25,344 nucleotides of DNA from Gammaproteobacteria bacterium (GTDB lineage Bacteria; Desulfobacterota; Desulfobacteria; Desulfobacterales; C00003060), in NCBI GenBank assembly GCA_048631945.1, contig JAIWEZ010000001.1:1-25344 (forward strand). The letters run 5' to 3'. Below the pieces are notes generated by a model. The model did no database searches. It was not told where the DNA came from and worked only from the letters and a program-made list of their open reading frames with translations. This document shows, piece by piece, positions 1,625 to 25,344 of the stretch. Within the stretch, counting starts at the first letter, position 1. The number at the start of each line of letters is the position of its first letter. Both the position numbers and the translations under genes were made by a program.

Positions 1625-3128
1625 CCCCGGTACCAGTACCGGACCATTCCCACTTTTGACAACATTCAGGATCAGGTGCCACAAAAGGCTTACAAGCATT
1701 CGGATTCTTCCATTGCGTACATATCATTGAGCCTGCGCCCGGCGACCAACAACGGCCGACATAACCGGCCGGGGGGTCATCAGGGCTGGCAGTATTGACG
1801 TCCCACGCCCCAAAGCATACATAGCCTTGACTGTCGGTCGTAATGTCCCACGGATTTATAGGGGGCGCGGCCGTATAGAGGGCCTCGCAAGCGGGCTTTA
1901 CAGCCTGAACCGGTCCGGCGCCGGGCGGCCAGCTGCCTTGTTTTGACGCATACCAGCAGTTGTGAATAGCATGGTTGAACGCCGCCATGTAGTTGGATAC
2001 ATCTCCTTGATTTACTCCTTCAGTATACCCCATACAATCGTCGATATGAACCTTTAGCTGGCCTAGGTTAAGAGTGGTAACCCCTGTCAACATGTCAATG
2101 GCGTCTTGACACCCGGTGTTATCAAACCCGGTCGATGTGACCGGAAATATTTCAATATAGGTAACATTGTAGTCATCCCAATCCGTTATGCCTGTATCAT
2201 CGGCAACTCCGGTGCAAGTGCCGCAGGTGGTACCCCCACCGGCCGTTATATACATCTCTCCGTTATCACTCACAATACTGTTGGCCGGATACCATGCGCC
2301 GGCCGTCCATCGGGTGAGAGTGTATGCCACCCAGGTGACACCCGTGTCATCGGCAACGCCGGTCCCGCTTGATGTGCCGCTGGTGGTCGCGATATAAAGG
2401 TCTGCCATGTCGGTTACGATATCCCCTATTACATAGGCTGTCGCATTTTCCCAGGGTGGAAAAGTCTCTTCCTTTGGCCCTCCTATGCCCAGGGTCAGGT
2501 ATAAGGTGTTGGAATCCGCATCCAATACCGCTATTTTTTTGATAAAACGCCTGTCAAGACAGCCCCTTGATTCCATGACAAGCCGGTCGTTTGGTGCTCC
2601 ATAAGTGCCGGTTGTTTCAAGTTTGCCGCCGGTTAGGATCTTTTTTTCGATGTCAAATTTTGAAGCCATTGCCCAGTTGATAAAATTTCCCTTTGCAACA
2701 AATGCAGTCACAACATTTGGGGTGACGGTCTTGTCTACGGCGATACCGACGTCGCGGTCGGTGGTGCTATTGACGTATTTCGTGCCCGTAGCCCCGGCCA
2801 ATAAGGTTGTTGCAAGAGCCTCGGTTGTAGCTTCAAATTGCATGTCCGTCTCATCATACTTATAATAGGTTCCCGGTTCGCAATAGCCGGAATAGGTATT
2901 TGTCGGGACGTAGCTGTCGTCGTAACAATTCTCCTGATTGTCAATATAGGCCAGGTCATACATGCTGGCAGAGTTGTCAATAAGGAGAAGCAAATTCGGG
3001 GTCACAGAGGCGGTCAGAAATGGCGGGAGACTGTGGTAGTCACCCATGATGGCAACACCCAGTGCCCCGGAAGCCATTGATACAATTAGAAGCAATGAAA
3101 ATGTTAGGCTATATGCAAGCTTTTTCAT
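1602..3128 (-). CDS. pilY1: PilY1/PilC pilus-tip adhesin, N-terminal part (508 aa as sequenced; ends in 7 out-of-frame residues)
   Basis: Sec-type signal peptide, PNLLLLIDNSASM (MIDAS DxSxS), AGGAGG RBS, last gene of the fimT-pilV-pilW-pilX operon; continues in another frame after G501. Confidence 0.85.
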   Translation of the reverse strand: MKKLAYSLTFSLLLIVSMASGALGVAIMGDYHSLPPFLTASVTPNLLLLIDNSASMYDLAYIDNQENCYDDSYVPTNTYSGYCEPGTYYKYDETDMQFEATTEALATTLLAGATGTKYVNSTTDRDVGIAVDKTVTPNVVTAFVAKGNFINWAMASKFDIEKKILTGGKLETTGTYGAPNDRLVMESRGCLDRRFIKKIAVLDADSNTLYLTLGIGGPKEETFPPWENATAYVIGDIVTDMADLYIATTSGTSSGTGVADDTGVTWVAYTLTRWTAGAWYPANSIVSDNGEMYITAGGGTTCGTCTGVADDTGITDWDDYNVTYIEIFPVTSTGFDNTGCQDAIDMLTGVTTLNLGQLKVHIDDCMGYTEGVNQGDVSNYMAAFNHAIHNCWYASKQGSWPPGAGPVQAVKPACEALYTAAPPINPWDITTDSQGYVCFGAWDVNTASPDDPPAGYVGRCWSPGAGSMICTQWKNPNACKPFVAPDPECCQKWEWSGTGTGVGCCWIC

Positions 3129-5370: not shown

Positions 5371-5515
5371 TTGATGGTTCGTAAAAAGTCGGATTCAGTC
5401 AACGTGTCATTTCGACCAAAGGTAGAAATCTAATGTTTTCAGCATGCTACACCGGAAAAGATTTCTCGCTTTGCTCGAAATGACAGGTAGTTGAGACTTT
5501 TTACGAGTTTGTAAA
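5371..5515. repeat. Palindromic intergenic element A1 (shell TTGAY-N4-TCGTAAAAAGTC with GTCATTTCGA/AGAAATCT cargo)
   Basis: Perfect 12-bp inverted repeat TCGTAAAAAGTC 5379-5390 / GACTTTTTACGA 5495-5506; inner IRs TGTCATTTCGA 5405-5415 / 5475-5485 and AGAAATCT 5424-5431 / 5459-5466; aligns with 20228-20477. Confidence 0.9.
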
Positions 5516-18255: not shown

Positions 18256-18426
18256 GGCAACCGGGTGCTTGTCGAGACTGTGGCTCCCTGCTTGTATGGG
18301 CTTTAGCTTACACGATAAGGAGGTAAGGCGGAGATGGGACTCGGTTTCAATGAGGATGAGGGCGACCTTAGCAAGCTTACAGATAACCCAAATTTGGAGG
18401 GAAAAGAGATCCAGAGGGAGGAACCA

Positions 18427-20013
18427 ATGGAAAAAATCTTCATTTTTGACACCACTTTGAGAGATGGTGAACAGATTCCAGGGGCATGCCTCAACCCACG
18501 GGAAAAGTTAGAAATCGCCTTACAACTTGAACGTTTACAGGTAGATGCCATTGAGGCCGGATTTCCTATCTCATCGCCGGGTGATTTTGAGGCTGTGAAG
18601 ACGATTGCCGAAAAGATTAAAGGTCCTGCCATTGTGGCACTTGCGCGTGCCGTTCCAAAGGACATTGAAGCGGCATGGGGGGCCATAAGAAAGGCTGCAA
18701 GACCCCGTATTCACGTCTTTTTACCGTCATCAGATATTCATATCCAGAAAAAATTTGGTACGGATCGAACAAAGCAATTAGAGCGAGGACTTGAGGCATT
18801 AAAATATGCCAAATCTCTGTGTCCTGAGATAGAGTACTCGCCTGAGGACGCTTCCAGGACTGATCCAGAATATTTGGTTAAGGTAGTAGAACAGGTTGTT
18901 GCTGCTGGTGCTACAGTCGTGAATATCCCGGACACGGTTGGCTATGCGGTTCCCCAGCAGTTTGGCCGGCTCATAGCTTATCTTATGGAAAAGGTGTCAG
19001 ACATCGACAAGATAGTGCTCAGTGTGCATTGCCATAACGACCTGGGTCTTGCTACGGCCAACACCTTATCAGCCGTAGAAAATGGAGCAAGACAGGTGGA
19101 GTGTACGATGAACGGCCTTGGGGAAAGGGCGGGGAATGCCTCCTTAGAGGAACTCGTCATGGCCATCAAGACCCGGAAAGACTATTTCAAATACTTCACT
19201 ACGGTTAATACCCAGGAGATTATGAGGACCAGCAAATTGGTCAGTCGGTTGATGGGAATGCCGGTTCAGGCCAATAAGGCCATTGTTGGCGCCAATGCTT
19301 TTTCCCATTCATCCGGTATTCACCAAGACGGCATCCTCAAAGATCGTTCAACGTATGAAGCTATACGCCCCGAAGATGTGGGTATCACAGAACATGCCAT
19401 GGTTCTGACGGCAAGATCGGGCAGGCACGCCCTCAGGCAGAAGATCTCAGAGATGGGCTATGATTTTCCGGAACAAGAATTTGAAGCTGTTTACAATCAG
19501 TTTCTCTCTGTTGCGGACAAGAAAAAGCAAGTCTACGATGATGACGTGGCTGTCATAGTCCAGGACGTGATTTTTGCCTATTTAGATGACAGCAAACTAT
19601 ACAGCCTTGAATCATACAAAATGACTACGGGCAACGGAGAGGTACCTGAGGCCAGGGTGCGACTGCGACGGGAGGGAGTTCTTTTGGAGGCGAGTGCTCA
19701 GGGTGACGGGCCTATCGACGCTATTTTTAAGGCGGTTGACAAGATTGTGGGCGCTTACCATAAACTTGAGGACTTTCAGGTCAACGCTGTGACCGAGACC
19801 AAGGAGGCCATGGGCATAGCTACTGTGCGGGTGGCTCGCGAAGGTTTTCGCGCTCTGGGTCGGGGATCCAGCACAGACATCCTCAAGGCCAGCGCCAAGG
19901 CTTATGTCCAGGCCATCAACCGGCTCCAGTGGCTGCTGCTGCGTACCTCAGAGACCCACCACTCGGACAACGGCCTTTCATCTCAAAATAGTACCACACC
20001 TGATACAGCATGA
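18427..20013 (+). CDS. leuA: 2-isopropylmalate synthase
   Basis: IFDTTLRDGEQ, EAGFP, YSPEDASRT, NIPDTVG, HCHNDLG, NGLGERAGN, C-terminal regulatory domain. Start 18427 (GGGAGG RBS) preferred; 18334 is an alternative. Confidence 0.95.
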   Translation: MEKIFIFDTTLRDGEQIPGACLNPREKLEIALQLERLQVDAIEAGFPISSPGDFEAVKTIAEKIKGPAIVALARAVPKDIEAAWGAIRKAARPRIHVFLPSSDIHIQKKFGTDRTKQLERGLEALKYAKSLCPEIEYSPEDASRTDPEYLVKVVEQVVAAGATVVNIPDTVGYAVPQQFGRLIAYLMEKVSDIDKIVLSVHCHNDLGLATANTLSAVENGARQVECTMNGLGERAGNASLEELVMAIKTRKDYFKYFTTVNTQEIMRTSKLVSRLMGMPVQANKAIVGANAFSHSSGIHQDGILKDRSTYEAIRPEDVGITEHAMVLTARSGRHALRQKISEMGYDFPEQEFEAVYNQFLSVADKKKQVYDDDVAVIVQDVIFAYLDDSKLYSLESYKMTTGNGEVPEARVRLRREGVLLEASAQGDGPIDAIFKAVDKIVGAYHKLEDFQVNAVTETKEAMGIATVRVAREGFRALGRGSSTDILKASAKAYVQAINRLQWLLLRTSETHHSDNGLSSQNSTTPDTA

Positions 20014-20069: not shown

Positions 20070-20225
20070 TTGATACATTCGTAAAAAGTCAAAAGACTCC
20101 CTCTCCCTTGATGGGAGAGGGTTGGGGTGAGGGTGAAAATATGGGATTTCAGTGACTTATATCCCCCTCCCCTTAATCCCCTCCCTCCAGGGGAGGGGAA
20201 GTGAGACTTTTTACGAAATCATCTT
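20070..20225. repeat. Palindromic element A2: same shell as A1, different C/G-rich cargo
   Basis: TTCGTAAAAAGTC 20078-20090 / GACTTTTTACGAA 20205-20217 encloses CCCTCTCCC-TTGAT-GGGAGAGGG...CCCCTCCC-TCCA-GGGGAGGGG. Confidence 0.9.
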
Positions 20226-20227
20226 AA

Positions 20228-20477
20228 TTGACAAACTCTTAAAAAGTCTGATTCAGTCAATGTGTCATTCCCGCCTGCCAACGCCTGAGACAACATTCAG
20301 CTTATGTGCCTGCATTTCTGGCAATGGCGGGCAGGTCAAACACAGGGAGAAATCTAATGTTTTCAGCATGCTATACCGGAAAGATTTCTCGCTTTCAGCC
20401 GTCGTAGCCGAGGCTACTATGGCGAAGTCGGCTTGCTCGAAATGACAAGTTATTAAGACTTTTTACGATACCATCAA
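20228..20477. repeat. Palindromic element A3: A1-type cargo with two nested insertions
   Basis: Collinear with 5371-5515 except for a 66-nt insert (20270-20335) and a 39-nt insert (20395-20433); begins 2 nt after A2. Confidence 0.9.
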
Positions 20478-20488
20478 GATTTCGTAAT

Positions 20489-20636
20489 GTCAGCGGTCAG
20501 TTGTTAGTAGTCAGTTGTATTAATATTTTCACGGGGTTAGGTGGCACATCAGATTACCGGCATCCATTTTTGCTATCTATCCGAAATAACTGTATTTTGC
20601 AGCTTTGGCAACGGACAACTAACAACAATCAACGAA
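20489..20636. repeat. Two roughly inverted heptamer arrays downstream of the SH3 gene
   Basis: GTCAGCG GTCAGTT GTTAGTA GTCAGTT (20489-20516) and CAACGGA CAACTAA CAACAAT CAACGAA (20609-20636). Confidence 0.65.
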
Positions 20637-20690: not shown

Positions 20691-21128
20691 TCAATACCCC
20701 CACACCAGGGACTTATGGATCCATCCAACCTCGCCGTCTGCGTGCTGGACCTCAAACCACGCTTTCTTTTTTTTCAGCAGCTTGAAGCTGACCCCTTTTT
20801 CGGCTTGGAATAAGACCCTGGAGTCTGTTCCAGGTCCCTCCCGAACATTGACAATTGTCCCTTTGACGATAACGGCAGAAATCTTCTTAAGAAGCGACCG
20901 GTAAATCCACCCGGTGTCCCCTTCAAAGTCACGAACTCGGCACCAGTTTCCAGATGTCTTAATGATGTCAACTGGATAATACTTTCCAACAGACCACAGG
21001 ATTTCGTGGCTTGTCCCAGGGCCTGAGCGCACATTGACTTTATTCGCAGCAACGCTGAGCCGCTTGGCACTGGCCGTGCCAACGGATAAAACGAGCACCA
21101 ACAGGGTGAAGATAAAAAGTTTTTTCAT
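20691..21128 (-). CDS. Exported protein with two bacterial SH3 domains
   Basis: Signal peptide (..VGTASA|K), two NVRSGPGT/NVREGPGT...W..V...G..GW repeats. Confidence 0.88.
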   Translation of the reverse strand: MKKLFIFTLLVLVLSVGTASAKRLSVAANKVNVRSGPGTSHEILWSVGKYYPVDIIKTSGNWCRVRDFEGDTGWIYRSLLKKISAVIVKGTIVNVREGPGTDSRVLFQAEKGVSFKLLKKKKAWFEVQHADGEVGWIHKSLVWGY

Positions 21129-21202
21129 GGGCTTATAGTCTTTCAGAAAAAGATTTTTTGGTTCTTCCGCCTCAGGCGGACAGAAAGTTCAATAAATACA
21201 AA

Positions 21203-21865: not shown

Positions 21866-22055
21866 TACACTGTTTTAAAACCTTTATTCTTGGTCTGTTG
21901 GCCATTTTCGAAAGTACTAAGCTCGCTTCTCTAATATTGTAAAACTCAGGCCAACACCTTCAAACAGTTACAATTTTTTGACACTTTGTATCGCTAAGAA
22001 CTTTTGAAAAAAACGGCCAACATTTAGTCGTCAAAGGATTTTGAAACAGCTTCTA
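21866..22055. mobile_element. MITE-like palindromic element B1
   Basis: Right end AAGGATTTTGAAACAGCTTCTA (22034-22055) is the reverse complement (21/22) of the B2 left end; degenerate left end TACACTGTTTTAAAACCTT; internal IR TTGGCC...GGCCAA; TA termini. Mobility is inferred. Confidence 0.7.
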
Positions 22056-25218: not shown

Positions 25219-25344
25219 TAGAAGCTGTTTCAAAACCCTTTTCCTTGGTCTGTTTGGCTATTTTTGAAAGTTCTAAGCTCGCTTCGCCTCCGGCCCGTGG
25301 GGCCTACGCCCTGGAGGGCTAAAATTGTAAAACTCGGGCTAACG
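25219..25344. mobile_element. MITE-like element B2 (truncated by the window edge) with a nested 32-nt insert
   Basis: Collinear with 21866 onward (CTTGGTCTGTT.GC.ATTTT.GAAAGT.CTAAGCTCGCTTC...CTAA.ATTGTAAAACTC.GGC.AAC), with extra bases at 25286-25317. Confidence 0.75.

Follow-up and report, generated by a model that had tools for sequence, protein, structure and literature searches.

Classical miniature inverted-repeat transposable elements (MITEs) are 70-300 bp long, end in terminal inverted repeats of 15-30 bp and duplicate their target. Below this size range are the small dispersed repeats (SDRs) of Nostoc and other cyanobacteria, which Elhai et al. reportedly described in 2008 (Genome Res) as units of less than 100 nt (the cyanobacterial SDRs being 21-27 nt) that are nested in each other and in MITE-like repeats; they are said to be recognisable by filled and empty related sites, to have no known enzyme and to share their genomes with heptamer arrays. 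Repetitive extragenic palindromes (REPs), in turn, are extragenic palindromes of 20-40 nt with an unpaired 5' GT[AG]G tag and a link to genes for REP-associated tyrosine transposases (RAYTs) (PMC6006769; PMC3116915), the rule for the tag being that it is unpaired and lies 0-2 nt 5' of the basal stem (PMC6006769). Larger palindromes of Anabaena, Thermomicrobium and Halothiobacillus have been reported to carry REPs at their centre (PMC3733652), and REPs are also reported inserted into or beside one another, in clusters of REP doublets forming hairpins (REPINs) (PMC3116915). Here we compare with these systems two inserts of 66 and 39 nt in a palindromic repeat, A3, on a 25,344-nt stretch of Desulfobacterales DNA (the window), which is contig C1 of a metagenome-assembled genome (MAG; G000) of 1.98 Mb, 239 contigs and 67% completeness. 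We think it likely that each insert represents a family of its own, unrelated to the other, of very small insertion elements that are non-autonomous and of the REP and SDR kind; both families are found in a genus of uncultured Desulfobacterales and in some neighbouring lineages. Both are discrete units with exact ends, no target duplication and filled as well as empty sites; they nest in themselves and differ widely in copy number, and the 39-nt unit occupies one host site in both orientations. This kind of element is known from other bacteria, yet these families and whatever moves them have not previously been described.

A3 (20237..20468, forward strand) and A1 (5379..5506, forward strand), a copy of the same host family without inserts, were defined by alignment, census and fold, and they align over their whole length except for two blocks that only A3 has, the shared parts being 93%, 96% and 89% identical. 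A1, a palindrome of 128 nt, forms a single long hairpin on folding (-30 kcal/mol, z = -7.5) and has 12-nt inverted shell termini and an inner 11-bp stem; in A3 the shell termini read TCTTAAAAAGTC and GACTTTTTACGA, and the inner arms TGTGTCATT / TCAAAC.. and ..GCTCGAAATGACA. An earlier reading of the letters alone (the original prediction) had taken A1 for the empty allele, 128 versus 232 bp being equal to 66 + 39 - 1, and the arithmetic is right: the lengths differ by 104, and the missing base lies in an A run (AAAA in A1, AAA in A3). Insert 1 sits just where it had been placed, at 20270-20335 on the forward strand with ends CCCGCCTGCC and GGCGGGCAGG, and corresponds to an empty site at 5411/5412 of A1. 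For insert 2, put at 20395-20433, the length of 39 nt stands and the placement does not. Pairwise alignment of A1 with A3 leaves this block free to slide by 1-2 bases within 20393-20433, owing to flanking T's; since about 100 copies in other genomes start with TTCAGCC and finish with GTCGGC, the 39-nt unit is 20394..20432 on the forward strand, and its empty site in A1 is 5470/5471. Both inserts had been thought to land in stems of the host, which is true of the 66-nt unit, as it breaks the 11-bp inner stem at TGTCATT^TCGA, but not of the 39-nt unit, which lies between TCTCGCT and TTGCTCG in a segment that is weakly paired in A1 and an internal loop in most A copies. Target-site duplication is absent from both inserts, as had been noticed, and many other copies agree.

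The 66-nt unit has conserved ends (CCCGCCTGCCA and GGCAATGGCGGGCAGG), which can pair over 11 bp with one mismatch, and a variable interior that falls into three or more subfamilies. Near its 3' end, at a distance of 12 nt, is a subterminal hairpin (TGCCNG-5 nt-CNGGCA), one pair of which varies between A-T, G-C and G-T, and despite the diverged interior its length is strictly kept at 66 nt in 43/43 distinct copies. Loci of the 39-nt unit were collected by scanning species-representative genomes with its 21-nt right arm, and the counts of contexts, loops and flanks given here rest on loci among the matches listed (at least 113 distinct loci, many MAGs); 54 loci matched the end pattern of the 66-nt unit, a few of these being chance or variant matches. 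While the copy in A3 consists of TTCAGCCGTCGTAGCC, a GA loop and GGCTACTATGGCGAAGTCGGC, the listed loci show TTCAGCCGTCGTAGCC, a loop of 1-5 nt and then GGCTACTWTGGCGAAGTCGGC amid unrelated flanks, with arms almost invariant across many species and other lineages and only the loop varying. The unit contains a conserved 10-nt asymmetric bulge (TWTGGCGAAG), and its GTAG lies inside an inner 6-bp stem (GTAGCC/GGCTAC) rather than forming an unpaired 5' tag. Some 39-nt units repeat the first 8 nt (TTCAGCCG) two to three times in tandem, and others form a head-to-tail fusion with a variant of reduced length (TCGCAGCC-AGT-GC..); such 5' repeats or fusions, seen at L049, L060, L068 and L098 in other MAGs and on contigs C109, C13 and C169 of G000, possibly go back to slippage or abortive events at the 5' end.

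A genome search for both inserts, as the original prediction had advised, finds each of them in several unrelated contexts of G000. The 66-nt unit is present in about 13 copies with several unrelated flanks, namely in A hosts (C1, C44, C8, C204, C117), in AAATCCG-type heptamer arrays (C50, C110, C170, C179, C233), beside a CCCCCTTT..AAAGGGGG hairpin (C2, C177, C204) and in another repeat (C111), and the 39-nt unit in roughly 25-30 copies with at least six contexts. In relatives, BLAST gives many short discrete matches whose limits are those of the two blocks, and with reversed-pattern controls yielding 0-1 matches the recurrence of both blocks with the same ends is well beyond chance. After merging of similar flanks we count 51 context families for the 39-nt unit (among the loci listed) and 24 for the 66-nt unit, and target duplication is absent from all of them. 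No copy in G000 lies inside a credible gene; all are extragenic, and their longest open frames are short and lopsided. Hence the test for in-frame copies within coding sequences that had been advised is negative there, and the lengths in multiples of 3 mean nothing, the 39-nt family itself having members of 38-42 nt.

Across 37 species of the genus, copies per genome range from 0 to 108 for the 39-nt core and from 0 to 390 for the 3' end of the 66-nt unit, and several genomes of 96-98% completeness have none at all; complete genomes with zero copies include G068, G154, G137 and G153. The ratio of 66-nt to 39-nt counts shifts from 390:8 (G150) and 117:1 (G016) to 20:108 (G152) and 9:49 (G018); the counts are rank-correlated (rho 0.57), so that repeat-rich genomes tend to have both units. 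Exact matches to one of the units come from many cold-seep and hydrothermal Desulfobacterales or Desulfobacteria MAGs; beyond the genus, the 66-nt unit occurs at 90-96% identity in two further families of the order and the 39-nt unit in another family (G029). Over the whole assembly G000, both units and the A shell termini have a large share of their copies no more than about 200 nt from contig ends, which makes these repeats a main cause of assembly breaks and the copy numbers lower bounds.

Two tandem 39-nt units were also seen in a TCAACAA-type heptamer array of three related IMG/VR viral contigs (L238:5000-5090; L239:6200-6295; L240:5550-5645), which may possibly be a vehicle for spread of this unit between hosts. 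Matches of viral contigs to the 3' end of the 66-nt unit were rejected as chance hits in coding-like DNA. Complete 39-nt units with perfect arms are found, too, in CACTTTAGTT-type arrays of a Candidatus Euphemobacter frigidus MAG (Auribacterota; L057, L064), and these copies reflect either cross-phylum transfer or contig mis-binning.

That the units enter as blocks is seen where filled and empty sites can be compared between related genomes, as the original prediction had likewise proposed. In one orthologous pair, G018:C319 has and G000:C66 (around 5742) lacks an exact 80-nt insertion between GTTCAGCGTT and TCAGGGTTACAACC, while the flanks match at 396/400 and 398/400 positions; the insertion is a forward 39-nt-type unit with a reversed unit in its loop, and paralogues of the C66 host in G000 (C101, C58) carry single units at the very same site. 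In another case, G000:C111 bears an exact 66-nt insertion (3047-3112) at ..TTCGA^TATTCGAA.. that is not in two G018 copies (C221, C61) of the same repeat. Next to this insertion, at about 3113-3145 of C111, we also observe an extra 21-nt segment without counterpart in either G018 copy. Orthologous comparison of the C11 and C101 loci gave no information, G018 having them in identical form and G002, G010 and G014 being too diverged there or filled in another way. Orientation appears to be free: three copies of a larger repeat in one MAG carry the 39-nt unit at the same host site, CCAA^TAAC, two of them forward (L048, L073) and one reversed (L016), flush at both ends. Moreover, the units enter their own kind. 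Seven loci from several MAGs show a reversed 39-nt unit, intact in both its halves, whose 2-3-nt loop is occupied exactly by a forward one. The 66-nt units, too, are inserted in others of their family, at GGCA^T or, where the host is reversed, at CGCCA^TTGCC, and the same subfamily also has hosts that are uninterrupted. With many unrelated contexts, exact ends and filled and empty pairs, the earlier idea of ultra-short mobile units nested in a larger repeat is thus upheld.

Its companion idea, that the units target hairpin DNA, is not, at least as a general rule. Alignment of the flanks, which the original prediction had recommended, brings out short sequence preferences instead: the 66-nt unit prefers an A^T junction (A at -1 in 17/24 contexts, T at +1 in 21/24, often ^TCGA), and the 39-nt unit follows CC at -4/-3 (C at -4 in 40/51 and at -3 in 32/51 context families) and is followed by T in 32/51. 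The left arm of the 39-nt unit ends in GTAGCC and is followed by the loop, which meets this CCNN^ rule and explains self-nesting. By comparison, an unpaired base lies beside the junction in 74% of 39-nt hosts versus 65% of control positions and in 58% of 66-nt hosts versus 55%, i.e. near control levels, and junctions are not clearly more often unpaired or enclosed than control positions are. Once the unit is removed, 17% (39-nt) and 25% (66-nt) of the hosts fold at z < -2; most hosts are other intergenic repeats, including palindromes, heptamer arrays and copies of the units, and some insertions are at the apex of small hairpins (for instance TTCGA-ATA^TCGAA and CACGCC..GGCGTG). We envisage that each family would enter new sites as a block with fixed ends, host bases being neither duplicated nor deleted, and that the 66-nt unit would go mostly between A and T, often at ..ATA^TCGA.. 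or GCA^T, and the 39-nt unit mostly 2 nt downstream of CC and before T.

Several observations weigh against mobility, among them some from the A family itself. In a census over G000, G018 and other MAGs, A copies come in four states: no insert (at least six), the 66-nt unit only (six), the 39-nt unit only (four) and both (five). All 15 filled copies have their inserts at the same arm, position and orientation. The 66-nt unit is always in the left arm and in one orientation, even though the right arm offers the same 11-nt site reversed, and the loop of the 39-nt insert is GA in nearly every case, in contrast to the widely varying loops found elsewhere; in addition, variable middle haplotypes of A are common to all insert states. 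Such constancy of arm, orientation and loop speaks for descent and recombination and against repeated insertion, and on the simplest reading each unit was therefore inserted once, long ago, in an A element, after which the composites spread and A copies recombined, rather than being freshly inserted at A3. On this view, one 66-nt unit would have entered the left inner stem of an ancestral A-type palindrome and one 39-nt unit its right arm, the resulting composite would have spread as a unit, recombination among copies would have given the four insert states, and A3, downstream of leuA, would be one such composite copy. The orthologue of A3 in the sibling species G018 (L002, G018:C90:1-230, minus strand) fits in here. 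Its leuA, A2, left A3 half and 66-nt unit are 97-100% identical; its right half, where the switch was compared against window 20336-20520, is 98% identical to the insert-free G000:C31:7768-7854, has no 39-nt unit and runs into a different downstream flank. Since this half matches another A copy, we do not count the locus as a clean empty site; it is either a recombination between A copies or an assembly chimera. Among the adverse points we also count that neither unit on its own folds better than shuffled sequence (z = -0.6 and -1.2), so that the label 'mini-palindrome' overstates their structure, and that all genomes compared are fragmented MAGs, in which mis-binning is possible and copy counts are lower bounds. 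To these may be added a series of negative findings on a mobilising gene. The 30 Y1_Tnp loci of the genus, inspected with about 1.5 kb of flank in incomplete MAGs, hold no full unit copy, and the number of Y1 genes is hardly correlated with that of the units (rho 0.27 and 0.06). A parent insertion sequence (IS) was sought and rejected, as no matching ends more than 150 nt apart were found in G000 and the fetched loci (high-copy genomes such as G150 not being covered in full), and all-against-all clustering of 1165 open reading frames (ORFs) from 129 loci gave no transposase-like family enriched near the units.

Might the units, then, never transpose at all, homologous recombination, gene conversion and slippage merely shuffling modules, as proposed for bacterial interspersed mosaic elements (BIMEs) and their neisserial counterparts (NIMEs)? 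The fixed inserts, the GA loop and the shared middle haplotypes of the A hosts would suit such a model, as would the G018 orthologue with a left half like A3 and a right half like the C31 copy, and G000:C26, where half a reversed 39-nt unit is fused to a forward unit in the A right arm. We nonetheless find it unlikely: the 51 and 24 unrelated context families offer no homology for recombination, the ends are exact to the base, one site is filled in both orientations, and the 80-nt and 66-nt insertions lie within flanks that are 99% identical or nearly so. Units kept by selection as binding sites or as RNA or DNA signals (for a nucleoid protein, gyrase or RNA stability), with spread as a by-product, make for a model that we hold to be quite improbable. 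It would account for 39-nt arms that hardly change across species and lineages, loop excepted, for a 66-nt length retained over a diverged interior with a subterminal hairpin that accepts A-T, G-C or G-T at one pair, and for a location between convergent genes; on the other side, copies run from 0 to 390 within one genus and drop to zero in several nearly complete genomes, the units pile into each other and into other repeats, their folding is weak, and no Rfam family matches at gathering score anywhere in the window. Function and mobility are, in any case, not mutually exclusive.

Two further models concern the comparison of A1 with A3 itself. A1 could be a deletion derivative, both segments being original parts of A that were lost from A1-type copies, and the original prediction had named this possibility, i.e. 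segments present in most family copies and never in other contexts. A short imperfect direct repeat (TCGCTT / TCGGCTT) at the edges of the 39-nt insert in A3 could in principle mediate a deletion. But each segment is found in many places that have no A sequence around it, A copies free of inserts are common (at least six, versus six, four and five in the filled states) and coexist with single and double ones, and taking the units out restores a continuous A hairpin (z = -7.5), which together render a deletion very improbable. A chimeric join made at repeats by the metagenome assembler might mimic nesting, given that many contigs of the G000 MAG end in these repeats and one contig of a relative looks recombinant or chimeric; as the composite of A and both units came out independently at several places (G000:C1 and C44; G018:C112 and C179) and in MAGs of other projects, we consider this scarcely conceivable.

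Coming back to two families of mobile units, which we prefer, the fixed ends, lack of duplication, short flank preferences, use of either orientation and insertion into their own loop suggest that an enzyme recognising the ends of each family mobilises the units in trans, and the subterminal hairpin with short tail of the 66-nt unit and the TWTGGCGAAG bulge of the 39-nt unit also point this way. Of the known enzyme types a single-strand HUH/Y1 transposase, by analogy with IS200/IS605 and RAYT-REP systems, may be the most likely, albeit as a tentative choice only; an as yet unidentified enzyme carries similar weight, and the rest goes to replication- or recombination-based spread. A RAYT link was rejected, as the two Y1_Tnp genes of G000 (C82, C196) and about 150 matches across the genus (0-14 per genome) are not flanked by units. 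At the 30 Y1 loci there are isolated one-mismatch matches to a single 66-nt end motif in three cases and no 39-nt motif, tblastn with both Y1 proteins against the 113 listed 39-nt-unit loci gave one weak match only, and the recurrent neighbours among the 1165 ORFs are sensor kinases and translated heptamer arrays. G000:C196:1835-2785 encodes a Y1_Tnp + Bac_DnaA_C protein of a type that is multi-copy in the genome and the genus; this architecture corresponds to TnpA-REP subclass 2.1.2, near which no REPs were found (PMC6006769). Directly downstream of the C196 gene we noted GGGGTCAG. The other gene, G000:C82:4862-5495 (L009), lies between trpC and trpF, codes for a 167-aa IS200-like Y1 transposase and is flanked by inverted termini of about 30 bp, each with a CCGGCAAT..ATTGCCGG hairpin, that occur nowhere else in the assembly. 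It is conceivable, if rather doubtful, that both units and a third small unit at 25285-25318 (see below) are moved by machinery other than a REP-flanking RAYT, candidates being orphan proteins of the Y1_Tnp + DnaA-C type (subclass 2.1.2, no known DNA substrate) or else a different enzyme or a replication-linked process. If so, CCNN^ and A^T targets, orientation-free insertion and self-nesting would amount to a new way of mobilising elements of less than 70 nt, which would spread between families, perhaps phyla, and partly on phage DNA.

As for the surroundings, A3 is part of a 677-nt spacer between the convergent genes leuA (18334-20013, forward strand) and one for an SH3-domain protein (20691-21128, reverse strand); the spacer contains a terminator-like hairpin directly after leuA, A2, A3 and heptamer arrays. 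A2 (20079..20216, forward strand), the neighbour of A3, shares its 12-nt shell termini and has an unrelated interior of G/C tracts. This interior holds GGGGTGAG, which fits the consensus (GGGG[AT][CG]A[CG]) reported for the inverted repeats on either side of TIRYT-type Y1 transposases (PMC6006769). A third small GC-rich unit (25285..25318, forward strand; CCTCCGG..CCTGGAGG) is inserted after AAGCTCGCTTC in one copy (B2) of a B-family repeat and missing from another (B1, 21898-21955), and relatives of it are in other contexts on G000 contigs C28 (1986), C133 (5496) and, in part, C56 (4163). At 21166..21180, strand undefined, there is a stand-alone hairpin with a 6-bp stem and a 3-nt loop (TCCGCC-TCA-GGCGGA; fold z = -3.9), which exists as predicted; the kinship to either unit that had been assumed is not shown. 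TCCGCC-N3-GGCGGA is the third most common hairpin of this geometry in G000; its nine occurrences in 1.98 Mb compare with about 0.1 expected and have variable loops and flanks unrelated to each other, the other sites being C3:12439, C34:12543, C52:9705, C63:2977, C67:6713, C84:1634, C101:3722 and C143:5854. Either a common signal or one more minimal dispersed hairpin may lie behind it.

The movement of REP-like and other elements of less than 100 nt is poorly understood, and a few cultured Proteobacteria and cyanobacteria account for most of the work. A genus with two to three sequence-distinct families, ends exact to the base and filled and empty sites between sibling species is well suited to a comparative hunt for the mobilising gene, the more so with self-nesting, one site used in both orientations and 0-390 copies across 37 congeneric genomes, and the units provide a clear substrate for biochemical tests. 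They also break MAG assemblies and create recombinant or chimeric joins, which matters to users of cold-seep and hydrothermal Desulfobacterales genomes.

Set against the systems described at the beginning, classical MITEs and their relatives (Correia/NEMIS, Nezha, RUP, ERIC) resemble our units in being non-autonomous, intergenic and sometimes nested, and the A-type host with its 12-nt inverted termini is similar to them; both units differ in that they lack duplication and long inverted termini, the 66-nt unit having only 11 bp of imperfect terminal pairing. Rickettsia palindromic elements (RPEs) are small palindromic insertions as well, and it is from these that the remark on multiples of 3 derives. 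RPEs, however, lie in frame in genes, whereas no unit copy of G000 is in a credible open reading frame and the 39-nt family is not of constant length (38-42 nt). An integron attC reading of the 66-nt unit was dropped, since conserved R''/R' core motifs are absent as judged by eye. Miniature derivatives of IS200/IS605, which are associated with palindromes and depend on TnpA Y1, resemble the units in that the latter are without strict terminal inverted repeats and target duplication, that the 66-nt unit has a 3' subterminal hairpin with a tail of about 12 nt and that the 39-nt unit has a short preferred 5' sequence. Differences are that no parent IS with the same ends was found in G000 and the fetched loci, that the 39-nt unit has a single hairpin and not one for each of its left and right ends, and that the 5' target, a conserved tetra- or pentanucleotide in those elements, is weakly conserved here, amounting to one base (66-nt) or CC at -4/-3 (39-nt).

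SDRs, as reportedly described, share with our units a size of less than 100 nt, dispersal, nesting and filled and empty related sites, and differ in that ours are 39 and 66 nt, belong to Desulfobacterales MAGs, have other sequences and, in the 66-nt case, combine a fixed length with a variable interior. With REPs, BIMEs and REPINs the units have in common that they are extragenic, occur in many copies, are distributed very unevenly among related genomes and produce no target duplication, and the 39-nt unit (38-42 nt) with its 25-30 or so copies in G000 and up to 108 in a relative is also REP-like in size and number. Inverted doublets and clusters exist as well, and the 80-nt doublet, an inserted block in G018:C319, recalls a REPIN, but its two units are nested, one in the other's loop, and not side by side, and most units are single. 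What sets both families apart from REPs is that the GTAG of the 39-nt unit is in the inner stem and the 66-nt unit has none, that no full unit copy is present at the 30 Y1 loci, i.e. not within the distance of about 1 kb from a (usually single-copy) tnpA-REP/RAYT gene that defines a REPtron, and that their folds are weak. Taken together, the units share the lifestyle of REPs while failing two of their defining features, tag position and RAYT adjacency.

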